Below the pieces are notes generated by a model. That model saw only the letters and a program-made list of their open reading frames with translations. It ran no database searches and was not told the DNA's origin. Positions 6,349-46,168 of a stretch of DNA of 64,000 nucleotides are shown here, piece after piece. Source of the stretch: a phage; the NCBI GenBank assembly GCA_022143435.1, contig GCA_022143435.1_3941.1. One strand, written 5' to 3'. The position numbers were made by a program, and so were the translations under genes. Each line of letters begins with the position of its first letter. Within the stretch, counting starts at the first letter, position 1.

Positions 6349-6605
6349 GTAAGCCTCTTTTAAGTAGCTATTAAGTTTTAATCTTTTATCTTAACGTATT
6401 CTATACGTTATACTTTAAAGCTTTTTAAAAGCTATTAAATAATCTTTTAAGAGTTTTAAAGTATCTGTATAGTTAAACTGTTAAGTAACCTTTTAAGTAA
6501 AAACCCACTTCGCAAAGATTAACACCTTGTCAAGTGCATTGTCAACTTGCTTTTTATAATTTTTTGCAGTAATGTATGAGGTTAATGATTTTAGAGGGAG
6601 TAAAA

Positions 6606-9305
6606 ATGGAAAACGTAGATTTTAAAAACTTACATTTAGTTGGTGATACAGAAACTGATGGTTTACTCCTTGAGTTCACTAAAGTGCACGTAATGGCTTT
6701 CGCAGACTATAAATCTGACGATGAAGAGCCGCCTGTATGGGTCTTTACAGATGAGCCTATCCTCGGTCACAAGTATACCAAGTATATTAAGGGTGGCTTA
6801 CGTGAAGGTATTGAGTTTGCGTTAAAGGCAAAACGTCTTTGCATCCATAACGGTCTCGGTTATGACTGGTGGGTTTTCAATCACATTGCACCTGATTTAT
6901 GGAACTTTGATAATCCAAAGTGTAAACCGTGGAGTAATTTCTTTCAGGATTCTCTTATCCAGTCTCGTGTTCAGTGGATGGATAGACCAACTCCAAAGGG
7001 TTATAAAGGTGCTCATGGTTTGGCTGCATGGGGTGCTCGCGTTGGTGTTCGTAAGCCAGAGATTGAGCATTGGGGTGTGTGGAATGCAGAAATCTTCACT
7101 CGTGTTGTAGAAGATATCCGTATTAACGCCAAAACTAAACGGGCACTTGATAACGAGTATCTCAAGCTTAAGAAGTGTGGTATAGACACTTATGAGACTT
7201 ACATGCGAGCTAAAGAAACATCTTTCTGGATGAGTCAACAGGCTATTAATGGCTGGAAAGCTGATAAAGAGCTTATGGAGTTCCATGTGAAGGAACTTGA
7301 CAAATTGACTAATGAGCTTGCTTCAGAGGTTGAACCACATCTACCTCCAACTATTAAGACCAAAGGTAAAGTCACTGGAGAAGAGTTTGCAAAAGCTTGG
7401 AATGAGTATGTTGAAGCATTCGGTCATGCAGATGGACTGAAGAGAATTACCAAGTACCCTAAGACAAAGTACCGTCAGCAGGTACGTAACGGTGAGATGC
7501 AGACATACGAAATCAAGCCATTTGGTAAGCCAACTACAAAGATTTTTAACATTGAAAAGAGAAATTGCTATACACCAACCAACTCTGTAACTGGTGAAGA
7601 GTACAAGGAAGGTTTTGTAGCAATGAAGGATGCTCGTGCAATTTGCAATGAGTTGAACGCAAAGATTGGTAAGAAATGCAAAGACTGGAAGCCAGTAAAA
7701 ACAGTCAAAACTGTGAAGTACTATAACAGTCATGTTGTTAACCACTTTGAACTTGAGTCAAGTCGCTACACAGGTTTGATTGATGCACCATATACACCAA
7801 TTGAGTTCGAAGTTTCTCGCATGACTCAGGTAGCAGTTGTTAAAGACTACTTGAAATCAGTTGGTTGGATTCCAGATGACTGGAATTACAAGAAAGACTC
7901 AGATGGTCGCCCTGTCAAAGTTTGTCGTTTCAAAGACAATAAAAAGATGATTACAAAGCATCCTAAGTGGCAGGAAATGGTTGAGCGGTGTGGTTTGAAT
8001 TATGTTGAACATGAAGGTGTACAGTACATCGAGCATAACTGGTCTGTGAAGAAATACACAGATTTGCTTGAGCCTTGCTTAATCCGTACTTCACCAAAAC
8101 TTACTGAATCATCTTATGATACGATTGAAGGTGAGCTTGGACAGAAGATTGCTAAGTACTATACTTTGATGCACAGACGCAGAACTATTGAGAACTCAAA
8201 GGATGATGAAAAAGGTTGGTTGAACCAGATTCGTCCTGATGGTCGCCTTAGTGCTGGCGCAATGGTGTTTGGTACTTCAACTGGACGTATGACACAATAT
8301 GGTATTGTAAACGTACCGTCTGGTGCTGCTGTCTATGGGGAACCAATGAGGGCAGTGTGGATTTGTGAGGAAGGTACTAACGTTGTCTCTGTAGATATGA
8401 ACTCAGCCCAGCTAGTTCTTCTTTGTAACTTTATGGGTGATAAAGAGTTCACCAAAGCGGTAACGCAAGGTAAAGAAGAGATTGAGTTTATTCGTCAAGA
8501 AGATGGACGCTATTACTGCAAACATTTTGATGAGTACCTCAACCCAGAGATTGATAAGTACCTTCGCTATGACTCTGAGAATGACCTGTACGTTGTCTAT
8601 TCAGGGACTGATGCACATACACTGAACAGTATCTACTTTAGCTTGAACGATGAGCAGGACATCTTGACTTGTCGAGCTACTCAGGATGAGAATCTTCTTC
8701 ATGAGATTAGCAAAGGTCGTAAGAAAGCTAAGAATGGTATCTATGCACTACTGTTTGGTGCAGGTGATGAGAAGTTTGCTAAAACTATTAAGGCAGCCAC
8801 TACTCAGGAAGGTGCATTAACTAAACAGACTTACTTTGTGCGTTTGCCAAAGATTAAGAAACTATTAGATAACTTGGAAGCTGACTACAAAGCAACTAAA
8901 AAGGCACTTGAAGAGGTGTTTGGTAAGACCGCTGCAATCTCTAAAGGGGGTTTTGTAAAGGTTGCTGGAGCTTGGTTGTGGTGTAAATCTCCACATAAGT
9001 TGTTGAATTATTTGCTCATGGGTTCGGAAAGTCAGATTCAGAACGAGGCAATTAACCTTGCTTGCCGTCGTATGATTGACGAAGGTTTGATGAAGTTGAA
9101 CGGTCGCAAACCAGCTATAGGTGCTCGTTTATTGTGCTCCTATCACGACGAGACAAGTTGGGAATGTCCAGAAAGTATGACGGCAGAGGTGAAGGCTGTC
9201 ACTGATTGGTATTACGGGCAAGCCTCTAAGAACTTAGGACTAAAGAGTGAAACACTGGTAACTGGTACTGGTAAGGTTGGTAAGTCGTGGTTGGAAGTGC
9301 ATTAA
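6606..9305 (+). CDS. DNA polymerase, family A, with 3'-5' exonuclease domain
   Basis: Exo I motif VGDTETDGL; polymerase motif C YHDETSWECP; start moved to ATG 6606 (AGAGGGA RBS) rather than track start 6576. Confidence 0.9.
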   Translation: MENVDFKNLHLVGDTETDGLLLEFTKVHVMAFADYKSDDEEPPVWVFTDEPILGHKYTKYIKGGLREGIEFALKAKRLCIHNGLGYDWWVFNHIAPDLWNFDNPKCKPWSNFFQDSLIQSRVQWMDRPTPKGYKGAHGLAAWGARVGVRKPEIEHWGVWNAEIFTRVVEDIRINAKTKRALDNEYLKLKKCGIDTYETYMRAKETSFWMSQQAINGWKADKELMEFHVKELDKLTNELASEVEPHLPPTIKTKGKVTGEEFAKAWNEYVEAFGHADGLKRITKYPKTKYRQQVRNGEMQTYEIKPFGKPTTKIFNIEKRNCYTPTNSVTGEEYKEGFVAMKDARAICNELNAKIGKKCKDWKPVKTVKTVKYYNSHVVNHFELESSRYTGLIDAPYTPIEFEVSRMTQVAVVKDYLKSVGWIPDDWNYKKDSDGRPVKVCRFKDNKKMITKHPKWQEMVERCGLNYVEHEGVQYIEHNWSVKKYTDLLEPCLIRTSPKLTESSYDTIEGELGQKIAKYYTLMHRRRTIENSKDDEKGWLNQIRPDGRLSAGAMVFGTSTGRMTQYGIVNVPSGAAVYGEPMRAVWICEEGTNVVSVDMNSAQLVLLCNFMGDKEFTKAVTQGKEEIEFIRQEDGRYYCKHFDEYLNPEIDKYLRYDSENDLYVVYSGTDAHTLNSIYFSLNDEQDILTCRATQDENLLHEISKGRKKAKNGIYALLFGAGDEKFAKTIKAATTQEGALTKQTYFVRLPKIKKLLDNLEADYKATKKALEEVFGKTAAISKGGFVKVAGAWLWCKSPHKLLNYLLMGSESQIQNEAINLACRRMIDEGLMKLNGRKPAIGARLLCSYHDETSWECPESMTAEVKAVTDWYYGQASKNLGLKSETLVTGTGKVGKSWLEVH

Positions 9306-9315
9306 TGGTGACAAA

Positions 9316-9843
9316 ATGATTACACAAGAACGTTTAAAGGAACTACTACACTATGACCCCGAAACAGGGGTCTTTACTTGGCTTCGTAGGGAGGGTGACT
9401 CAAGGGCTGTTAAAGTCTTTAATAGTCGGTACGCAGGACAGGTAGCGGGGAGCATCCAGATTGACTCAACTGGTCATAATCAGATTACTATCTATTTTGA
9501 CAAGAAAGCACATAAAGCGCACAGACTCGCATGGCTGTACGTGTATGGTAGGCTGCCGAAAGGTGTTATTGACCATGTTAATGGGGACTCCCTTGATAAC
9601 AGGATTGTAAACTTAAGAGAAGCAGATGACTACCAAAGTGCTTGGAATAAAAGCAAACTATCCACCAATAAATCAGGCTATAAGGGTGTAAGCCTGAAGA
9701 AGAAGTCTGGTAGGTGGGTTGCGCAAATAAGCTATAAAGGTAAAAAGATGTCATTAGGCTACTATGACACACCAGAAGAGGCCCATAAAGCTTACTGTGA
9801 AGCTGCTGTAAAACTCCACGGAGAGTTTGCAAAACTAAGTTGA
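9316..9843 (+). CDS. HNH homing endonuclease with AP2-type DNA-binding domain
   Basis: HNH core HRLAWLYVYGRLPKGVIDHVNGDSLDNRIVNL; AP2-like SGYKGVSLKKKSGRWVAQISYKGKKMSLGYYDTPEEA; starts 11 nt after the polymerase stop. Confidence 0.8.
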   Translation: MITQERLKELLHYDPETGVFTWLRREGDSRAVKVFNSRYAGQVAGSIQIDSTGHNQITIYFDKKAHKAHRLAWLYVYGRLPKGVIDHVNGDSLDNRIVNLREADDYQSAWNKSKLSTNKSGYKGVSLKKKSGRWVAQISYKGKKMSLGYYDTPEEAHKAYCEAAVKLHGEFAKLS

Positions 9844-9894
9844 CAAGGTGCTCAGGGAAGAGTACCTTATACTATATCTTGTATAGGAGGGCTT

Positions 9895-10104
9895 ATGAGC
9901 CACCGTGGAAGAACCCATGCAGCGATGATGAAAGGTGCTTCAAAGGAGACTATCAAAAATCGTAAGCAGAAGTTGTTTGAGAGGATGAACAGGTTAATTG
10001 ACAATTCATCTCTTTCAGGTTCTGAGAAGGTTTTCTTGAAAGGTAATCTGAAAAGCATTGCACAAGAACTTATTGACATTGAGTATTGGAGACATCAAAA
10101 ATGA
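9895..10104 (+). CDS. hypothetical protein
   Basis: 69-aa ORF with RBS GGAGGG. Confidence 0.45.
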   Translation: MSHRGRTHAAMMKGASKETIKNRKQKLFERMNRLIDNSSLSGSEKVFLKGNLKSIAQELIDIEYWRHQK

Positions 10105-10313
10105 CACTTGCAGACGTTATTCAGCAACTTCATGATAACTGCTACACTCCAGAGTTAATTCAGGAGATGTCCATTGTAGTCATGCCTAGCAAGTTCGTAA
10201 AAACCTTTAACAACGACGCTTTAAGGTCTACACACATCCTTATCGTTGACGGTAAGATTGCAAAAGACCGTACTGGAGTACTCAAAGGTGAACGTATTGA
10301 CATTAACTTTTAA
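10101..10313 (+). CDS. hypothetical protein
   Basis: ATG 10101 with GGAG upstream (track start 10086 is TTG). Confidence 0.45.
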   Translation: MTLADVIQQLHDNCYTPELIQEMSIVVMPSKFVKTFNNDALRSTHILIVDGKIAKDRTGVLKGERIDINF

Positions 10314-10330
10314 GTATTGGAGAAATCAAA

Positions 10331-10543
10331 ATGACTTATGAAGAAGCTGTTGAAGCAATGAAGCAGGGTAAGAAAGTTCGTAACGAGAACTTCACACCTG
10401 ATGAGTTCTTTGAAATGAAAGACGGAAAGATTGTCTGTGAAATGGGTTACCCAATGGCTAAATGGTATCGTGGACTTGATTGGCAGAAAACTGGATGGAG
10501 TGTTGTAAAGGACTCTCCAAAAGCTTCTGATTTATTCTTTTAA
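10331..10543 (+). CDS. DUF2829-like small protein (same family as Thoeris anti-defence Tad2)
   Basis: N-terminus MTYEEAVEAMKQGKKVRNENF matches the DUF2829 signature as I recall it; conserved Trp near C-terminus; GGAG RBS. Confidence 0.5.
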   Translation: MTYEEAVEAMKQGKKVRNENFTPDEFFEMKDGKIVCEMGYPMAKWYRGLDWQKTGWSVVKDSPKASDLFF

Positions 10544-10552
10544 GGAAATACT

Positions 10553-10759
10553 ATGCAAGTTTTAGTAAACTATATCTACCGTTATGATGTTATCCACTCA
10601 ACCAATACAGTTGCTCAACGCAACCCTATTGTACCACGAGAAGGTGAGTGGGTTCGTATTGATGGTTGGATTTATACTGTAGAGAATGTTATCCACAAAT
10701 TTGATGTGGGTGATGATACTCAAGTGATTGATGTAGAGATTGGTGGGAAGAGAAAATGA
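10553..10759 (+). CDS. hypothetical protein
   Basis: 68-aa ORF in operon. Confidence 0.45.
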   Translation: MQVLVNYIYRYDVIHSTNTVAQRNPIVPREGEWVRIDGWIYTVENVIHKFDVGDDTQVIDVEIGGKRK

Positions 10760-11859
10760 CAATTCTGTACAAACAAAATAAAGATGGCTCTTTTAACGTC
10801 TGGTCATGCGTTGCTGTAGGTGACAAAGTGGTTACCACGTATGGCAAAGAAAATGGCAAGATGATGTTTGAAGAGTACACAGCAGAACCAAAAAACATCG
10901 GCAAAAAGAATGAGCGTAACGCTGAACAGCAAGCTCTCTTTGAAGTTGCTGCTAAATACAAGAAGCAGGTTGACCGTAAAGGCTATGCTTATTCAAAATC
11001 TGCTGCACAGGAAGTTGAGAAGGTTGGTGTACAGCTTGCACATGATGCTTCCAAGGTTAGTCATGCAAAGTATCTGAAATTCCCTGCTGATGCTCAACCA
11101 AAACTTGACGGTGTTCGTTGCAGGATTTCTCGTCATCAAAGTCTTGGTGGAATGTTTACAGCTTATTCTCGTGAGAATACGGTTTACAACATCCCCGAAG
11201 AATTGATTCCAGATATAACTATGATGCTCAAACTTCATAAAGATGTGGATGAGTTTGACGGTGAGATTTATGCTCATGGTTGGGACTTGGAAGATATTGT
11301 ATCCATGATTAAGAATGCTGACAATCCAGACCGTCACCTACTTAAATTCTACTGGTATGATATCTGCGATAATTCTAAATCTTGGCCTGAGCGTCGTGAA
11401 ATCATTGATAACTCACCAATCGTTGAACTCGGTGATGCTTGCAGGGTTGTACCTGTTCAAACTATCCGTGTTAACTCTTGGGAAGAGTTCGACAAAGCCC
11501 ATGATAATTGGGTTAAGCTGAAGTTTGAAGGGGCTATGTACCGTTCAATCTCTGAAGAATCTTTCTACGAGTGTAGTCACCGTTCATACTTCTTAATCAA
11601 GCATAAGAAGATGCACACTGAAGAGTTTAAAGTAACTGGTGTGAAAACTGATAAACGTGGTCATGGTAAGTTTGTTGTAGAGACTCTTCCTAACGTCTTT
11701 GTAGATGTTTCATGGAAAACTACCCATGAGAAGAAGAAGTATCTTGCTGAACATCCTGAAGAGTTTATCGGGAAACCTTTGACGGTTCAGTTCCAGAAGA
11801 TGACTCGTAGGGGGTCTTTACAGTTCCCTGTTGGGTTAGTTATCAGAGATTATGAATAA
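10756..11859 (+). CDS. DNA ligase, ATP-dependent type
   Basis: Nucleotidyltransferase motif I KLDGVRC; further ligase-like motifs EGAMYRS, LIKHKK. Confidence 0.6.
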   Translation: MTILYKQNKDGSFNVWSCVAVGDKVVTTYGKENGKMMFEEYTAEPKNIGKKNERNAEQQALFEVAAKYKKQVDRKGYAYSKSAAQEVEKVGVQLAHDASKVSHAKYLKFPADAQPKLDGVRCRISRHQSLGGMFTAYSRENTVYNIPEELIPDITMMLKLHKDVDEFDGEIYAHGWDLEDIVSMIKNADNPDRHLLKFYWYDICDNSKSWPERREIIDNSPIVELGDACRVVPVQTIRVNSWEEFDKAHDNWVKLKFEGAMYRSISEESFYECSHRSYFLIKHKKMHTEEFKVTGVKTDKRGHGKFVVETLPNVFVDVSWKTTHEKKKYLAEHPEEFIGKPLTVQFQKMTRRGSLQFPVGLVIRDYE

Positions 11860-41258: not shown

Positions 41259-41334
41259 TGGAGAATCCGAAGGGACTCGAACCCTTATAAACCTGTTTTG
41301 CAGACAGGCACATATCCATTTCTGTCACGGATTC
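41259..41334 (-). tRNA. tRNA-Cys (GCA)
   Basis: Manual cloverleaf; 7-bp acceptor stem; CCA encoded. Confidence 0.65.
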
Positions 41335-41339
41335 AAAAT

Positions 41340-41432
41340 TGGAGGAAGATACCAGACTTGAACTGGTACACCGATTTCTCAGCTACTGGCAGTTTAGCAA
41401 ACTGCTCCCTTACCTTTTAGGGTTAATCTTCC
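41340..41432 (-). tRNA. tRNA-Ser (GCT), class II
   Basis: Long variable arm; anticodon loop TTGCTAA. Confidence 0.6.
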
Positions 41433-41433
41433 A

Positions 41434-42168
41434 TTATTTCTGTAATGCGCTCTTCATTTCTGGTGTTGCAATAGTGTCAATTACACCAGTTTTACAGGCA
41501 TCATCAAACCAGTCTGGTAAGATACCTGCTAAGAACCCATTGATATTCGTTTTAAGGTACTCTGCAATAAGGGCAGCTTCTTCTTCAATCATCTGCACAA
41601 CTTCATCTGCATAAGCTGTAATCTTTGAGATACCTTCATTAATCTTACTGACAGCTTGGTTAGCTAAATCAGAAACAGTATCAAGACCCTTGTCAATAGC
41701 GTCTTGTAAGTCACTTAATACATTGTTAACACTCTCTAGTGTACTGTTAATCATATCAATAGCTTTTTGACCATATTCTGTAGCAACACCCATAATACCA
41801 CTGAACGGTGTACAACCAACTTGTTCTCCTGCTGCACCCATAACATTGGAATATCCCTTTGCTACCTGCATACGTGATGAAAACTCATCAATAGATTTTT
41901 GACCGTAGTCTGTCAGGGTCTTAGTAGTTGCTGTAGTGCTTGTAAGGCTTGTTGTAAAGCTGTTTAGAAGGACTGTTGTAAGTCCAGCAGCAACAAGTTT
42001 CTCCTGCATTGTAGGGTCTGTTACAGAACTAATAGAGCTTACAAGTGATGTAGAAGCAGCTACGGTTCCACCGAGAACTGCTGCACCAGTAATAAGTGGG
42101 TTAGAAAACCCTTTACCGGTTTTTAAGAGATTAAAAATCTCCTTACCTTGTTCTGTCATCTCTTTCAT
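41434..42168 (-). CDS. hypothetical protein embedded in tRNA array
   Basis: Start moved to ATG 42168 (AGGTG upstream) because the track start overlaps tRNA-Phe. Confidence 0.4.
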   Translation of the reverse strand: MKEMTEQGKEIFNLLKTGKGFSNPLITGAAVLGGTVAASTSLVSSISSVTDPTMQEKLVAAGLTTVLLNSFTTSLTSTTATTKTLTDYGQKSIDEFSSRMQVAKGYSNVMGAAGEQVGCTPFSGIMGVATEYGQKAIDMINSTLESVNNVLSDLQDAIDKGLDTVSDLANQAVSKINEGISKITAYADEVVQMIEEEAALIAEYLKTNINGFLAGILPDWFDDACKTGVIDTIATPEMKSALQK

Positions 42169-42184
42169 TAAGCACCTTTGAAAT

Positions 42185-42260
42185 TGGTAGTCCAGTGGGA
42201 TTTGAACCCTCTTCTCATGTTTTTCAGACACGCGCTTTAACCATATAAGCTACTTGGACT
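42185..42260 (-). tRNA. tRNA-Phe (GAA)
   Basis: Manual cloverleaf; anticodon loop CTGAAAA. Confidence 0.6.
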
Positions 42261-42266
42261 ATAAAT

Positions 42267-42342
42267 TGGGGTGACCTACGGGATTTGAACCCGTATAGAC
42301 CATGTTCACAGCATGGGTCATTACCATTTATGATAAGGCCAC
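42267..42342 (-). tRNA. tRNA-His (GTG)
   Basis: Anticodon loop CTGTGAA. Confidence 0.6.
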
Positions 42343-42377
42343 ATTTAAGGACTCTCGTAAGAACCCTTAGAAGTGGC

Positions 42378-42448
42378 AGCGGCATAAGGATTTGAACCTT
42401 AATAGGACAGCTTCAGAGACTGTTGCATTGCCAGTTATGCTATACCGC
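42378..42448 (-). tRNA. tRNA-Gln (CTG)
   Basis: Anticodon loop CTCTGAA; CCA not encoded. Confidence 0.5.
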
Positions 42449-42454
42449 TAAATT

Positions 42455-42533
42455 TGGTACTCCATATCGGATTCGAACCGATACATAACACAGATTTTAA
42501 GTCTGGCCTCTCTGCCAATTGGAGTAATGGAGC
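42455..42533 (-). tRNA. tRNA with anticodon TAA (Leu by anticodon, short variable loop)
   Basis: Good acceptor and T arms; 4-bp anticodon stem; class-I-like length. Confidence 0.45.
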
Positions 42534-42535
42534 AT

Positions 42536-42611
42536 TGGCGGGGGATGTTGGAATTGAACCAACTTCTTCGATTTCAAAGACCGAGGTTTTAACCTTGTAA
42601 ACTAATCCCCT
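42536..42611 (-). tRNA. tRNA-Gln (TTG)
   Basis: Anticodon loop CTTTGAA. Confidence 0.5.
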
Positions 42612-42619
42612 TTAAATCT

Positions 42620-43177
42620 TTACTTTCTTAGTGGATGAATAAAGAATGCCAACATAACTCTTTCCCTTGAGAATGCTCTTTCTTCTGGGACAACACTTTT
42701 TAGCTTCCACCCAATATAAATTCTCCAGTAGAACTGTTTACCAAAGATTTTAATTGATGGGATAAAAGCGAATAATCCCCAAGCATTGCTGTTCCACATT
42801 AGGAGATAACCTGTCTGATTATCTTCAGGGTTAGAACTTACGTTGATATTACCTTTCCACTTAGTAACATCTTTTACATCTCTTCCTAATACATGGTAAG
42901 AGAAGTTATAAGCTTTGTTTCTCCAGAGCCATCCGACTCTTTGCATGTAGACACCTAGTTTACCAATCCATCTAATATTAGCCCATCTTTTAACGTGACC
43001 TTCATCACCATCAATTGGGTTGTCATATGTCTCCATCCATCTGAATCCGAAAGGTAAGTGTCCTTTCTTCTCACTGTAGAATGGAACTACAAAAGGTGCT
43101 AAGATAACTGCTAAGATTGCTGCAAATGGCTCTAACAAAGCTAAGAAAATCCATGAAGCATACTTCAAATATCTCAT
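42620..43177 (-). CDS. membrane protein embedded in tRNA array
   Basis: N-terminal hydrophobic segment WIFLALLEPFAAILAVILAPFVVPF; Trp-rich. Confidence 0.45.
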   Translation of the reverse strand: MRYLKYASWIFLALLEPFAAILAVILAPFVVPFYSEKKGHLPFGFRWMETYDNPIDGDEGHVKRWANIRWIGKLGVYMQRVGWLWRNKAYNFSYHVLGRDVKDVTKWKGNINVSSNPEDNQTGYLLMWNSNAWGLFAFIPSIKIFGKQFYWRIYIGWKLKSVVPEERAFSRERVMLAFFIHPLRK

Positions 43178-43196
43178 CTAAATAGCCTCTTTAAAT

Positions 43197-43272
43197 TGGC
43201 GCAGGATAAGGGATTCGAACCCCTATTAACAGCTTCGTAGACTGTTGCTCTATCCATTTGAACTAATCCTGC
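43197..43272 (-). tRNA. tRNA-Arg (ACG)
   Basis: Anticodon loop CTACGAA. Confidence 0.65.
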
Positions 43273-43277
43273 AAAAT

Positions 43278-43355
43278 TGGTGTTCCAAGACGGATTCGAA
43301 CCGTCACTAGTACAAGGTTTGAGCTTGCATCCTCTGCCAATTGGGATACTGGAAC
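43278..43355 (-). tRNA. tRNA with anticodon CAA (Leu by anticodon, short variable loop)
   Basis: 5-bp anticodon stem, loop CTCAAAC. Confidence 0.45.
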
Positions 43356-43356
43356 A

Positions 43357-43431
43357 TGGTACTCACTAAAGGACTTGAACCTTTTTCTTCATCTTGTAAG
43401 GGTGGTGTTTTACCATATAAACTAAGCGAGT
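43357..43431 (-). tRNA. tRNA-like, anticodon TAC (Val?), weak anticodon stem
   Basis: Good acceptor/D/T arms; anticodon stem has two C-A mismatches. Confidence 0.4.
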
Positions 43432-43527
43432 GTGAAAGAGGTCTGAAGTTGTGCCGCTAACTCAACTCCGTGGAATTTGTTACGGTCTTCAGTTGACTCA
43501 AAGCGGTCTTTCACTTGACCTCTAAAT
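43432..43527 (-). ncRNA. tRNA-sized structured element, not a canonical cloverleaf
   Basis: Perfect 7-bp terminal stem AGAGGTC/GACCTCT enclosing about 73 nt; no standard T-loop. Confidence 0.25.
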
Positions 43528-43603
43528 TGGTGCTCCCACAAGGATTCGAACCCTGATAAGTTGCTTACAAGGCAACCGTAATAGCCAATTATACGATAGG
43601 AGC
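43528..43603 (-). tRNA. tRNA-Thr (TGT)
   Basis: Anticodon loop CTTGTAA. Confidence 0.6.
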
Positions 43604-43610
43604 ATTAATT

Positions 43611-43685
43611 TGGAGCATCCAGAGGGAATCGAACCCTCAACCTCAGTTTGGAAGACTGTAATTTTCCCGTTTAAACTATGGATGC
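43611..43685 (-). tRNA. tRNA-Gly (TCC)
   Basis: Anticodon loop CTTCCAA. Confidence 0.6.
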
Positions 43686-43691
43686 ACTAAT

Positions 43692-43767
43692 TGGTGGAGT
43701 CACTGAGAATTGAACTCAGTTCCCAAGTTTGCAAAACTCGAATTTTAACCATATAAACTATGACCCC
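43692..43767 (-). tRNA. tRNA-Ala (TGC)
   Basis: Anticodon loop TTTGCAA. Confidence 0.6.
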
Positions 43768-43773
43768 ATTTTT

Positions 43774-43849
43774 TGGTACAGGTGGAGGGAATTGAACCCA
43801 TCGTCTTACTGATTAAGAGTCAGCCGCATAACCATTTTGCTACACCTGC
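43774..43849 (-). tRNA. tRNA-Lys (CTT)
   Basis: Anticodon loop CTCTTAA; register slightly ambiguous. Confidence 0.45.
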
Positions 43850-43856
43850 ATTAATT

Positions 43857-43934
43857 TGGTAGGAGACAAGGGATTCGAACCCTCAAACACCAACTTCTAA
43901 GGATGGTAGGTTTACCAATTACCGTCAATCTCCC
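43857..43934 (-). tRNA. tRNA with anticodon TAG (Leu by anticodon)
   Basis: Anticodon loop CTTAGAA, 4/5 stem pairs. Confidence 0.4.
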
Positions 43935-44190
43935 ATTAAATCTTTTTAGAGAACTTCTAAGAACCTAAGCAACAAGGTTCCACAACAAGCTGTAATAACC
44001 TTAGAAGCCCTCTAAAAAGACCTAAAAAGGTCTTTGCATAGTCTTGTTTAATCCGGTGACTAGAACCTTTGGAGAGCTTGATATTATCTCTTCTCCGTGA
44101 CACCTACTAGGTGCTTTACTGTGCGTGTACGACAATACACTAGGGATACCAAAGCAACATCCGAATGAAGCTTGGCTTTAAATCTTATTA

Positions 44191-44269
44191 GGCGGTAAGT
44201 AAAGGAGTCGAACCCTCACCGTATCTCTACAGTGGCAACTGTTTTCAAGACAGTTTGGCTACCATTAGC
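44191..44269 (-). tRNA. tRNA-Ser (TGA), class II
   Basis: Anticodon stem ACTGT/ACAGT, loop CTTGAAA, long variable arm. Confidence 0.55.
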
Positions 44270-44293
44270 CGCTACCTACCCCTAATAAGACTT

Positions 44294-44376
44294 TGGCATG
44301 GGACGGAGGAGTTGAACCCCTTTGAAACGGTTTTGGAGGCCGTTGCTCATGCCTTAGAGTCTTAACATCGCCCCAT
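44294..44376 (-). tRNA. tRNA-like with Trp-type anticodon loop CTCCAAA (CCA)
   Basis: Anticodon arm matches E. coli tRNA-Trp loop; D region about 7 nt too long for a standard cloverleaf. Confidence 0.35.
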
Positions 44377-44518
44377 ACTATAATTCGAAGCTTACCGTAT
44401 TATCTCAACACTGTAAAGCCCCTTCTCAGATTATTTACATGTTCTGGAAAACATGAGATACAGACCACCTCCCTACAGGAAGACCCGCTTAGGTCGTCTA
44501 AGTAATCTGCTAACTAAT

Positions 44519-44595
44519 TGGTACACCCTACAGGATTCGAACCTGTAACTAACGATTTAGAAGACCGTTGCTCTATCCAATTGAACTAAGGGTGC
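44519..44595 (-). tRNA. tRNA-Arg (TCT)
   Basis: Anticodon loop CTTCTAA. Confidence 0.6.
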
Positions 44596-44798
44596 ATTAA
44601 TCTTTAAAGACTCTCTTAGAAAGCCCTTAAAGATGCCCACCTTATTAATCATACCGTGGGCTAGTACGCCAAATTCTTTGATGAGGGATTGGAAGACCTC
44701 ACTGGTGTTTAGCCTATCAAGCTACTGCCAGAAAAACATTGTCGTTTGCATTTATTTTAAATTTGCAAAATAGACGCTACGCAACGAAAACTAAGGTT

Positions 44799-44827
44799 AC
44801 TATAAAGTAGTCACATCTCAATGTCAA
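44799..44827 (-). promoter_or_regulatory. sigma70-like promoter inside tRNA array (TTGACA-N17-TATAGT)
   Basis: Read on minus strand; would drive the tRNAs at lower coordinates. Confidence 0.5.
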
Positions 44828-44842
44828 CAACTTTATTGAAAT

Positions 44843-44917
44843 TGGTTGTAGGTGAGGGTATCGAACCCTCTTCTAACGGTTATCAGCCGTTTGCATTACC
44901 ATTTATGCTAACCCACA
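44843..44917 (-). tRNA. tRNA-Ile (GAT)
   Basis: Anticodon loop CTGATAA. Confidence 0.65.
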
Positions 44918-44919
44918 AT

Positions 44920-44996
44920 TGGAGGTTCAGATGGGAATCGAACCCACATTCATAGGGCTTATGAGACCCTTGCATTACCTTATCTGCGACTGAACC
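44920..44996 (-). tRNA. tRNA-Met (CAT)
   Basis: Anticodon loop CTCATAA. Confidence 0.6.
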
Positions 44997-45000
44997 ATTT

Positions 45001-45076
45001 TGGTAGAAGTGGAGGGATTCGAACCCATCGCCTGTCAGATTAAAAGTCTGCCGCATCACCATTCTGCTACACTTCC
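45001..45076 (-). tRNA. tRNA-Lys (TTT)
   Basis: Anticodon loop CTTTTAA. Confidence 0.55.
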
Positions 45077-45081
45077 ATTAA

Positions 45082-45229
45082 ATTATCTTTGTAGATAAGC
45101 TACCCAGACTTGCTTAAGGTCTGTAGCGATGTGCCTTTTTGGGTTTAAATCTAGAATTTACCCTTTCACCCTTTGTGGTCGCATACTCACAGGTAAGCTT
45201 AATAACTTATCTACAAAGATAATTACCAG
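45082..45229. repeat. 18-bp inverted repeat (ATTATCTTTGTAGATAAG ... CTTATCTACAAAGATAAT) flanking about 110 bp
   Basis: Read directly; inside a tRNA-free gap of the array. Confidence 0.7.
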
Positions 45230-45504
45230 ACCGTTGTTTATCATCTTAAGTGCTACCATTACACCAACTCGACATCTGCCGAGTGAAGGAATCGAACCTT
45301 CGCCTTTTCTTTACCGAGAAATAGATTGTTTAAGTTTTGCTGTAAACGGTCTTCTGTAAATTTGTTGAGCCAGACCAAGTTTTAGATTTTCAAAATTAAA
45401 TTGGCTTGAAATTTCATACGTTCTTGCTGTATTTGGTCTTCTGCTCCTTTAAAGGATACTCGTAAGAACCCTTTAAGGGAGGGGCTAAATAGCCCTCTCA
45501 AAAT

Positions 45505-45583
45505 TGGCGGTTACGAAGGGATTTGAACCCTCATCATCTCCCGTGACAGGGGAGTATTTTAACCAAATTAAACTACATAACCT
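45505..45583 (-). tRNA. tRNA-Asp (GTC)
   Basis: Anticodon stem CTCCC/GGGAG, loop CTGTCAC. Confidence 0.65.
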
Positions 45584-45587
45584 TTAT

Positions 45588-45675
45588 TGGTGTGCCGTGT
45601 AGGAGTCGAACCTACCGAGTCTCAATGACAAGGGATTTACAGTCCCCACCGCTACCATCTACGGGATAACGACAC
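45588..45675 (-). tRNA. tRNA-Tyr (GTA), class II
   Basis: Anticodon loop CTGTAAA with long variable arm. Confidence 0.6.
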
Positions 45676-45684
45676 ATTTAAATT

Positions 45685-45761
45685 TGGCGGTTAGTCAGGG
45701 ATTCGAACCCTGTGCCATTCGCTTAACAGGCTACCGCACATACCTTATGTGCTTCCTAACC
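45685..45761 (-). tRNA. tRNA-Asn (GTT), imperfect anticodon stem
   Basis: Anticodon loop CTGTTAA; good acceptor and T arms. Confidence 0.45.
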
Positions 45762-45838
45762 TTAATACATTGCCAGACCGTGTTTTTTCTTTTATCCGCA
45801 AAAAGTAGTTTGTTGCTGAATACGGTCTTCTGCAAAAT

Positions 45839-45915
45839 TGGAGGCGGGTGCAGGAGTCGAACCTGCCGATACCATGCTAATGAGACATGTGAGACGCCCT
45901 TTCTCTATACCCGCA
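45839..45915 (-). tRNA. tRNA with anticodon CAT (second Met, initiator or Ile-lysidine type)
   Basis: Anticodon loop CTCATTA. Confidence 0.5.
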
Positions 45916-46006
45916 ATTCTTAATGACCAGACCAAATCTCTTCTTTGTCCGATTTCGTGTCAGATGAATAAGATTAAACTTGCTGTAATTGGTCTTCTGT
46001 CAAAAC

Positions 46007-46084
46007 TGGCGTTCCAGAAGGGATTTGAACCCTCAAATATCCACTTTGAAAGAGTGGTGACTTTACCATTTTGTCTACTGGAAC
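46007..46084 (-). tRNA. tRNA-Glu (TTC)
   Basis: Anticodon stem CCACT/AGTGG, loop CTTTCAA. Confidence 0.65.
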
Positions 46085-46091
46085 ATTAATT

Positions 46092-46168
46092 TGGTCTCTG
46101 TTGGAGGACTTGAACCTCCGGCCTTACCGTCCCAAACGGAACGCTCTACCAATCTGAGCTAAACAGAG
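46092..46168 (-). tRNA. tRNA-Pro (TGG)
   Basis: Canonical D arm GCTCAGATTGGTAGAGC; anticodon loop TTTGGGA. Confidence 0.65.

Follow-up and report, generated by a model that had tools for sequence, protein, structure and literature searches.

Magnani, Sjolander and Hake are said to have counted, in 2004, genes of Felix 01 and RB49 among the founding HNH-AP2 examples. HNH-AP2 homing endonuclease genes are known in phages (PMC10448857), and Felix O1 has six HNH genes (PMC3185647). The HNH enzyme I-HmuI, encoded within the SPO1 DNA polymerase intron, nicks one strand (PMC3428280). Free-standing HNH genes lie beside T7-like polymerase genes; where free-standing endonuclease genes adjoin an intron-bearing gene, in T7-like phages or, with F-CphI, in cyanophage S-PM2, 'collaborative homing' has been described, and 29% of the related IPA-HNH class adjoin DNA polymerase genes (PMC10448857). 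The free-standing HNH genes T4 MobE and the ICP1 IPA-HNH 'HEG islands' adjoin essential nucleotide or replication genes, mobilise flanking DNA and mark exchange boundaries (PMC2790892, PMC10448857). Nuclease genes are found at recombination boundaries in phages (PMC10448857), and gene conversion has been tied to homing endonuclease infestation in phages of this type (PMC8594841).

We analysed a 64-kb stretch of DNA from a Felixounavirus-like phage (the window; 64,000 nucleotides), focusing on the gene that follows its DNA polymerase gene. We consider it probable that positions 9316-9843 hold a free-standing HNH-AP2 homing endonuclease gene that lies in the polymerase transcription unit and spreads by homing together with the polymerase 3′ end. 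The features of the locus are as follows.

6576-9305, + strand: family A (T7-like) DNA polymerase gene, a single uninterrupted ORF of 909 aa, neighbour of the insertion
9284-9305, + strand: last 22 nt of the polymerase gene, synonymously recoded relative to typical empty alleles
9307-9311, + strand: Shine-Dalgarno-like GGTGA, 4 nt before ATG 9316, within the 10-nt spacer after the polymerase stop
9316-9843, + strand: free-standing HNH-AP2 homing endonuclease gene (predicted), 175 aa plus TGA, lineage A of the six at this site
9355-9372, + strand: hairpin GACCCC-GAAACA-GGGGTC, 18 nt, endonuclease codons 14-19
9514-9624, + strand: HNH_3 nuclease motif, residues 67-103 (Pfam)
9673-9822, + strand: AP2 DNA-binding domain, residues 120-169 (Pfam)
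9840-9894, + strand: conserved intergenic block at the right junction, beginning TTGACA; the next gene starts at 9895

The window protein shares its domain order, an N-terminal HNH_3 and a C-terminal AP2, with more than 4,100 homologs of the HNH-AP2 family, and we found no essential difference between the window gene and that family. I-HmuI resembles the window protein in being a monomeric phage HNH enzyme, tied to a family A polymerase gene, whose nuclease is N-terminal and whose DNA-binding module lies at the C-terminus; I-HmuI, however, is intron-encoded and carries C-terminal modules other than AP2, whereas the window gene is free-standing and downstream of the polymerase. As with the HNH genes of T7-like polymerases, a free-standing endonuclease gene stands beside a T7-type polymerase gene; among the window's relatives, that polymerase gene is either intron-free or interrupted by an intron, which is ORF-less in some and endonuclease-bearing in others. 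In contrast, the window lacks an intron, and the intron enzyme of its relatives is of the Endonuclease_7 type rather than HNH-AP2. The pattern at the locus also matches that of MobE and the ICP1 islands, although the host genes of MobE are nrd and not polymerase, and the IPA-HNH domains of ICP1 have diverged beyond the reach of the HNH_3 profile, of which the window protein is a canonical match. In the literature searched, we found no characterised member of the HNH-AP2 enzymes of the Felixounavirus group.

The original prediction had placed an HNH-AP2 gene with its ATG at 9316, directly after a polymerase stop at 9305, and both the coordinates and the two Pfam domains were borne out. According to the ORF list and the sequence, the polymerase stop (TAA, 9303-9305) is followed by 10 nt and then by the endonuclease ATG; the ORF reported by the mechanical caller (9277-9843) opens at a TTG within the polymerase 3′ end. 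The comparison indicates that ATG 9316 is the true start, because GGTGA precedes it, the annotation of phage dune agrees, and the N-terminus conserved in the wider family (MxTQERLKELLHYDPETG) is consistent with this position. The gene is read in a frame different from that of the polymerase, with its own start and stop and an intergenic position. A promoter scan found no promoter-like site on the + strand from the polymerase to the endonuclease gene; from this absence, and from the GGTGA in the spacer, we infer that the gene is co-transcribed with the polymerase. The 64-kb window holds no paralog of the endonuclease elsewhere. The element is real and of an already known kind, and a "putative HNH homing endonuclease" with 95-97% amino acid identity to the window gene is annotated in dune, JohannRWettstein, SUSP2, phiSUSP1 and other phages.

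The 175-aa product matched HNH_3 (PF13392; E = 8.3e-15, 54.6 bits, cut-off 24.8), AP2 (PF00847; E = 4.2e-13, 49.8 bits, cut-off 33.3) and phrog_99, 'HNH endonuclease' (2.9e-73), while no NCBIfam model matched it. These scores place the predicted domains far above chance. The catalytic and metal-binding residues of the beta-beta-alpha-Me motif (D-H ... N ... N) are present: the D86-H87 codons lie at 9571-9576 and are followed by N95, N99-L100-R101 and N111, the last of these just past the HNH_3 motif. Among 54 family members, D86, H87, N99, L100, R101 and N111 never vary and at least 90% keep N95; across the six local lineages, none of these residues varies.

An AlphaFold2 (AF2) model of the endonuclease, built from an alignment of database homologs, reached a pLDDT of 95.1, and its best Foldseek match in the PDB was I-HmuI (1u3e; E = 4.2e-4, probability 1.00, sequence identity 18%). 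The global TM-score between the two is low (0.38), which may reflect a different arrangement of the domains. The AP2 part of the model superimposed on 1gcc with an rmsd of 1.1 Å over 51 columns, and the PDB sequence matches of this domain were the plant AP2/ERF proteins WRI1, TEM1, ERF096 and AtERF1. The dN/dS of the endonuclease is 0.11-0.19 and its ORF is intact in 20 of the 20 occupied alleles; the gene is thus intact and under purifying selection. Because the catalytic residues are invariant, dN/dS lies in this range, the pLDDT is 95 and I-HmuI is the best structural match, the endonuclease looks functional.

We compared the site among 34 genomes, window included. Insert-free alleles do exist among the relatives: 14 genomes are empty (L004, L006, L008-L013, L015, L021-L023 and the more distant L031 and L032) and 20 are occupied, all at exactly the same site. 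Empty alleles are laid out as the polymerase stop, 3-6 nt and TTGACA, and the polymerase-3′/intergenic sequence of an insert-free Felixounavirus reads …GGTAAAAGCTGGCTTGAAGTACACTAATTAGTATTGACAAGGTGCTCATGG…. Alignment with insert-free relatives, the check proposed with the original prediction, defined the insertion as a net 528 bp between the polymerase stop codon and the conserved intergenic block, with edges fixed within a few nucleotides. The occupied alleles carry six HNH-AP2 lineages (A, A′, A″, B, C and D; 45-97% amino acid identity to the window gene), and Felix O1 itself has lineage D at the window's site. One of the lineages is present in about 153 of the ~265 related phages in GenBank (A/A′/A″ in 58, B in 49, C in 28 and D in 18). 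The gene is absent, without replacement, in about 40% of close relatives, among which it is therefore optional. Because the distant L031 and L032 (63% polymerase identity) are empty, the comparison indicates that the empty state is ancestral.

TTGACA (9840-9845), at the right junction, contains the endonuclease stop (TGA, 9841-9843). The intergenic block occurs in empty as well as in occupied alleles, and its sequence folds into two small hairpins. We considered its TTGACA and TATACT (9868-9873) as a sigma-70 promoter and rejected it, with a spacer of 22 nt and no call in the promoter scan; this TTGACA...TATACT motif does not recur elsewhere in the window. The junction is identical, and the last ~25 amino acids nearly identical, in all six lineages. 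For this reason the lineages may stem from one ancient insertion that was diversified by partial replacement, and not from six invasions.

At the left side, about 50 polymerase residues follow motif C (HDE near residue 858 of 909), just as had been predicted, and it had been proposed that the insertion may have shaped this C-terminus. That proposal fails for the window, whose C-terminus GKSWLEVH recurs unchanged in 8 of 14 empty alleles (the others differ by 1-2 residues) and in which only the last 22 nt differ, synonymously. It holds for lineage D, the Felix O1 type, where the endonuclease ATG lies 18 nt inside the polymerase gene and the polymerase ends in GKTWYAVH. The Pfam DNA_pol_A profile aligned up to position 379 of 381 at polymerase residue 905 of 909. 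Because the end of the profile is reached and empty alleles have the same C-terminus, the window polymerase appears complete, ending where the family ends, and ~50 residues after motif C are not unusual. The alignment with full-length T7 polymerase ends at residue 838, and the last 101 aa had no sequence match in the PDB.

The recoded 22 nt contain 8 synonymous differences from L004, the closest empty allele, against a background of 2-3 per 100 nt. The His codon at the polymerase 3′ end is CAC in all 14 empty alleles, and 16 of the 20 occupied ones have CAT; 10 of the 14 empty alleles use CTT for a Leu codon that is never CTT in the 20 occupied alleles. CAC is kept in some occupied alleles (A″ and D), and one empty allele, L010, has a Y-type polymerase C-terminus. 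The DNA that moves along with the endonuclease gene would have its left edge at about 9284-9305. The codon association is not phylogenetically independent and could reflect linkage through co-conversion and not immunity.

We found that the site and the polymerase 3′ end have a history separate from the phage backbone. Relatives that are 97-98% identical to the window in polymerase codons 11-724 carry lineage B, lineage C or nothing, and are only 72-86% identical to it in the last 255 nt of the gene. The Mooglevirus phages SUSP2 and phiSUSP1 have a backbone identity of 85%, but identity reaches 98% over the final 255 nt of the polymerase gene, and their endonuclease has 95% amino acid identity; the tract that they share with the window begins at ~9076, and Mooglevirus phages share the window gene, along with the ~230 nt at the polymerase 3′ end, at 97-99%. 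Where backbone identity to the window is 97% or more, the site still occurs in four different states. Nucleotide diversity is 0.04-0.11 over the first 1.7 kb of the polymerase gene, 0.25-0.27 at 9000-9250 and 0.08 to the right of the site, and the identity table and diversity profile mark the last ~300-900 nt of the gene as a mosaic, co-converted zone in the relatives. Because the site and polymerase 3′ end are phylogenetically incongruent with the backbone, the endonuclease gene must have moved between phage genera together with the adjacent polymerase 3′ end. The asymmetry of the conversion tracts may partly be an artefact of the low diversity, and hence few markers, to the right of the site. 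With 14 of 34 alleles empty, six lineages in the occupied ones and incongruence with the backbone, the earlier description of a free-standing, optional and selfish element is upheld.

Homing is the best explanation for these observations. During a mixed infection, the enzyme would use its AP2 domain, among other contacts, to bind DNA and would nick or cut the insert-free allele, most likely at the junction of the polymerase 3′ end and the intergenic region. In its own genome, the insertion and the synonymous changes at 9284-9302 would abolish this target. Repair by recombination, with the endonuclease-carrying genome as template, would then bring the gene and a polymerase 3′ segment of varying length into the recipient. 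The last 300-900 nt would have become the most diverse part of the polymerase gene through repeated invasions and replacements by different lineages. Cleavage, its mode (nicking or double-strand cutting) and the target sequence are deduced here from sequence comparison.

Some relatives of the window carry an unannotated group I intron in polymerase motif B, where it separates codons 724 and 725 (window 8747/8748). Rfam RF00028 matched in L003 at 61.7 bits, and exon matches place the intron at this codon boundary. The intron is ORF-less in L003 and L026, both of which have lineage A′ downstream, and contains an Endonuclease_7 ORF in L015 and L020-L023; Rfam found no RF00028 intron in the window. 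Several GenBank records split the polymerase into two genes; the intron accounts for this in REP12, the one record checked, and is probably also behind the others. Mushroom is a further intron-bearing relative.

The hairpin at codons 14-19 has stem nucleotides that are invariant in all six lineages. It is not a family-wide feature, being absent from three distant homologs of other phage types, nor a canonical terminator, as lineages B and D have no U-tract after it, and its 111-nt context folds no better than shuffles (z = -0.44). We tentatively entertain, as possible though doubtful, that the site is a cassette-exchange hotspot where at least six lineages swap, with a fixed 3′ module and the hairpin as a cis-acting element. 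The fixed module could comprise the last ~25 codons and the stop embedded in TTGACA, and the hairpin could act, for example, as a brake, in the polymerase transcript, on endonuclease expression or as a processing or recombination signal.

Collaborative homing, a concept already described (PMC10448857, PMC2790892), would have the endonuclease target the intron site in polymerase motif B, ~560 nt upstream, and not its own site. The presence of a group I intron at exactly codon 724/725 in relatives, its ORF-less state in two A′ genomes, and divergent tracts in A′ genomes that run from ~8376 to ~9476 and so cover both the intron site and the endonuclease gene, fit this proposal. We nevertheless judge it improbable. 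The window has no intron, no lineage-A genome examined has a split polymerase, A′ occurs without the intron in L025 and L027, and the SUSP2/phiSUSP1 tract starts at ~9076, well downstream of 8748. A mismatch cluster at 8750-8871 was considered as endonuclease-linked recoding of the intron site and rejected, because the window haplotype there is also present in the empty L006 and is therefore unlinked to the endonuclease gene. Collaborative homing would pair the endonuclease with an intron that interrupts the adjacent gene in its own genome; the window has no such intron, and targeting of the intron site by the lineage-A enzyme is not supported by the comparison.

Purifying selection and the 20 of 20 intact ORFs would also suit a domesticated protein, kept for its benefit to the phage either as a weapon against co-infecting relatives or as an AP2-type regulator of replication genes; the invariant hairpin and conserved 3′ module suggest regulated expression, and marker exclusion by phage homing endonucleases, established in T4, is a precedent. 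However, a gene that many close relatives lack without replacement and that is unlinked to the backbone phylogeny makes this quite unlikely. A purely regulatory role is disfavoured by the conserved catalytic residues, and exclusion shares with homing a single cleavage activity, so that the two differ in emphasis more than as true alternatives. The identical right junction in all lineages could likewise mean a single old insertion that became fixed and now decays as an inactive, vertically inherited relic that is no longer mobile. We give this very little credence: the ORFs are intact and their catalytic residues invariant, dN/dS is well below 1, gene and polymerase flank are near-identical in another genus, and near-identical backbones differ in site state.

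This locus is of value mainly as a clean, well-sampled natural example rather than as a discovery. The local diversity of the polymerase 3′ end in Felixounavirus is 3-5 times that of the rest of the gene, and this region is therefore a poor phylogenetic marker. The cultured isolates dune and JohannRWettstein/Bas63 carry the gene and insert-free relatives also exist, so that homing could be measured in crosses. If the cassette-exchange reading is true, the Ounavirinae would be a natural series for the co-evolution of free-standing endonucleases, introns (ORF-less or Endo VII-type) and host genes.

The window's polymerase and endonuclease genes were delineated by ORF listing and direct reading, giving two open frames at the following positions.

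6576-9305, + strand: family A DNA polymerase ORF, 909 aa, stop codon TAA at 9303-9305
9277-9843, + strand: endonuclease ORF, open from TTG 9277 to TGA 9843, in a different frame from the polymerase

The endonuclease starts at ATG 9316, because GGTGA (9307-9311) precedes this codon, the closest GenBank relative annotates the same start, and the resulting N-terminus, MITQERLKELLHYDPETG, agrees with the family consensus. Polymerase residues 691-905 align to positions 181-379 of the 381 in the Pfam DNA_pol_A profile, the ORF matches phrog_17 (1e-112), and its closest solved structure is T7 DNA polymerase. In the endonuclease, Pfam places HNH_3 at residues 67-103 (E = 8e-15) and AP2 at residues 120-169 (E = 4e-13), each scoring well over its cut-off, and the protein also matches phrog_99 'HNH endonuclease' (3e-73) and the PADLOC 'homing endonuclease' model. 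ORF reading, Pfam, PHROG and PADLOC thus agree with the original prediction on the polymerase stop, the ATG and the HNH-AP2 identity of the protein. A promoter scan found no promoter-like + strand site between the two genes, and their 10-nt spacer contains the Shine-Dalgarno-like GGTGA, which suggests that the endonuclease gene is most likely expressed off the polymerase transcript. On folding, the conserved block to the right of the gene forms two small hairpins (z = -1.8).

The window's polymerase-ligase region matches 265 phage records, nearly all from Felixounavirus or other Ounavirinae, with Escherichia phage dune as the top match (94.5%). Endonuclease genes with 95.4-96.9% nucleotide identity to the window's are found in JohannRWettstein, dune, VpaE1_ev78, DaR-2019b, SP22, vB_Si_DR094, phiSUSP1 and SUSP2, where GenBank annotates them as (putative) HNH homing endonuclease. 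Databases therefore already list the gene by the name that the original prediction gave it: the element belongs to a well-known type, and close relatives have this very gene annotated. The 24 tRNA genes clustered at 41262-46168 (- strand) are expected in Felix O1-like phages. Felix O1-like polymerase and endonuclease DNA (88-98% identity) is also present in MG065664/MG065668 ('Campylobacter phage A132/A126') and GU169904 ('Staphylococcus phage SA1'), which looks like contamination or chimeric assembly and not true host range.

We fetched 31 related IMG/VR loci using the polymerase C-terminus, together with three GenBank loci, and in each one placed the end of the polymerase gene, the endonuclease, the phrog_5180 gene that follows, and the ligase. 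With the window included, the comparison covers 34 alleles of the site between the polymerase stop and the conserved block. Insert-free alleles are present among the relatives, in keeping with the insertion originally proposed: 14 of the 34 are empty and 20 are occupied, and GenBank shows about the same 60:40 split (lineage counts 58 + 49 + 28 + 18 = 153 of ~265 related records). In 12 Felixounavirus-like empty genomes, TTAGTA (or TAGTG) separates the polymerase stop from the conserved block TTGACAAGGTGCTCA…. L031 and L032, two Ounavirinae-like loci at a greater distance (63% polymerase identity), are also empty with the same layout, which argues that the empty site is the ancestral state. These two loci carry an HNH-AP2 homolog (37-40% identity) directly upstream of the polymerase gene (L031:1350-1826), their post-polymerase site being empty.

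In all 20 occupied alleles, the HNH-AP2 gene lies between the polymerase stop and the conserved block; the genes fall into six lineages, and HNH_3 and AP2 scored in every lineage scanned. The net insertion in the window is 528 bp, practically the ORF alone, and the endonuclease stop TGA falls within TTGACA of the conserved block.

Endonuclease lineages at the site, with amino acid identity to the window's gene
Lineage A: window, dune, SUSP2, phiSUSP1; 95-97%
Lineage A': L003, L025-L027; 85-86%
Lineage A'': L016; 76%
Lineage C: L017, L018, L033; 50-56%
Lineage B: L002, L014, L019, L020, L024, L034; 46-48%
Lineage D: L028-L030, Felix O1 included; 45-47%

Farther right, past the phrog_5180 gene and before the ligase, three small ORFs (75, 70 and 68 aa) occupy 10100-10760. 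This stretch is hypervariable, with identity to close relatives down to 0-68% and large gaps, and the phrog_5180 gene itself is missing from some relatives.

Identity to the window was then taken over two parts of the polymerase gene, codons 11-724 (backbone) and the final 255 nt.

Polymerase identity to the window by site content
L002, L019, L024: site B; backbone 97-98%; last 255 nt 72-73%
L018: site C; backbone 97.6%; last 255 nt 74.5%
L008, L010, L011: site empty; backbone 97%; last 255 nt 84-86%
dune: site A; backbone 97%; last 255 nt 98.8%
SUSP2, phiSUSP1: site A; backbone 85%; last 255 nt 98%

SUSP2 and phiSUSP1, currently placed in the genus Mooglevirus, have a lineage-A gene with 95% amino acid identity to the window's, and 100-nt windows show their match to the window climbing from 80-90% to 97-99% at 9076-9375. 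Compared to L002, L003 and L018, synonymous divergence is saturated in the last 84 polymerase codons, while the remaining polymerase is nearly identical. Across 32 genomes, mean pairwise diversity is 0.04-0.11 in the first 1.7 kb of the polymerase gene and 0.15-0.19 from 8300, peaks at 0.25-0.27 at 9000-9250, and is 0.08 just right of the site.

The original prediction also held that the insertion may have shaped the polymerase C-terminus. The window's protein ends in …TGTGKVGKSWLEVH; its last eight residues, GKSWLEVH, are shared by 8 of the 14 empty alleles, the others changing one or two residues (GKNWLEVH, GKSWYEVH, GKNWLDVH, GKSWLDVH), and the Pfam match stops no more than four residues short of the end. 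These matches argue that the window's C-terminus was not reshaped. About 50 residues past motif C and a terminal His are the normal layout in T7 DNA polymerase and E. coli Pol I. Lineage D differs: its endonuclease ATG falls within the polymerase gene by 18 nt, and the polymerase ends in GKTWYAVH; therefore, the idea is true elsewhere in the genus and not here.

The coding of the polymerase 3′ end does differ. Its last 22 nt (9284-9302) contain 8 differences from L004, the closest empty allele, against a background of 2-3 differing positions per 100 nt elsewhere; all 8 leave the protein unchanged, and 10 of the 11 other Felixounavirus-like empty alleles differ from the window at all or most of these positions. 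For the terminal His, 16/20 occupied alleles use CAT and 14/14 empty ones CAC, and the Leu codon CTT occurs in 10/14 empty and 0/20 occupied alleles. This pattern would fit either a recognition site spanning the polymerase stop region or bases merely travelling with the gene, and is suggestive only, because the allele counts are phylogenetically non-independent.

In some relatives, though not in the window, codons A724 and L725 of the polymerase gene are separated by a group I intron. The equivalent point in the window, 8747/8748, falls in motif B (the O-helix, judged by the T7 alignment), in the sequence …AKNGIYA|LLFGAGDEKF. The intron is ORF-less and ~268 nt long in REP12 (L003:3749-4016; Rfam RF00028, 61.7 bits) and L026; in L015 and L020-L023 it spans ~800 nt and encodes a 160-aa Endonuclease_7 protein. 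In the REP12 record, the split polymerase appears as two 'DNA polymerase' CDSs, and 'DNA polymerase (x2)' is listed in several further GenBank records. Introns are reported as absent in the Felix O1 genome paper (PMC3185647), a comparative paper lists 'endonuclease VII' in FSL-SP107 without an intron link (PMC8300805), and the literature searched yielded no description of this intron. Compared to the otherwise close L004, window 8750-8871 has 17 clustered differences beginning right at the intron insertion site, a haplotype that the empty allele L006 shares with the window; the cluster may reflect the gain or loss of an intron in the past, not the downstream endonuclease gene.

The last ~25 codons of the endonuclease gene (…DTPEEAHKAYCEAAxKLHGEFAKLS; window 9770-9843) are near-identical in all six lineages, and the N-terminal parts are strongly diverged. 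Together with a right junction identical across all lineages, these codons suggest that a gene already in place was replaced in part, rather than that each lineage was inserted entirely on its own, and the endonuclease genes themselves appear to be mosaics. Within codons 14-19 lies an 18-nt GC-rich hairpin, GACCCC-N6-GGGGTC (9355-9372), the sole element of the RNA centroid structure. Its stem is invariant in 20/20 occupied alleles of all six lineages, four synonymous third positions included, even though amino acid identity between lineages drops to only 45-56%, while the loop and flanking codons vary. The hairpin is missing from the distant family members in other phages that were compared.

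Taken together, the empty alleles, the incongruence with the polymerase backbone and an intact, selected ORF uphold the original reading of a homing endonuclease gene, and we consider it probable that this free-standing gene is mobile, spreading by cutting or nicking and repair together with the polymerase 3′ end. The endonuclease would cut or nick insert-free alleles, and recombinational repair would copy in the gene and a stretch of the polymerase 3′ end that varies in length. This reading is weaker on the cleavage target, the polymerase-stop/intergenic junction having about an even chance of being correct. Alternatively, the enzyme could be aimed at the intron site in polymerase motif B, a collaborative homing that is disfavoured for lineage A: the intron is absent, the tract common with the SUSP phages begins only at ~9076, and the window's 8750-8871 haplotype also occurs in an empty allele.

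The remaining rivals are an inactive relic and a domesticated protein with an exclusion or regulatory role. Several observations point to a functional protein. The ORF is intact, at 167-177 aa, in each of the 20 occupied alleles, and dN/dS (lineage A versus A, A' and A'') is 0.11-0.19, with its lowest values in the two domains, HNH and AP2. Among 54 diverse homologs, D86-H87, N99-L100-R101 and N111 are invariant and N95 nearly so. The family counts more than 4,100 members of this architecture. An AlphaFold2 model built from the homolog alignment (mean pLDDT 95.1) has the HNH homing endonuclease I-HmuI as its best PDB match (E = 4e-4, probability 1.00), and the C-terminal part of the model overlays plant AP2/ERF domains at about 1 Å, with sequence-level matches too. 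The identity and diversity profile around the site is the one described generally for phage nuclease genes at boundaries of genetic exchange (PMC10448857), noted informally for large coliphages as well (PMC8594841).
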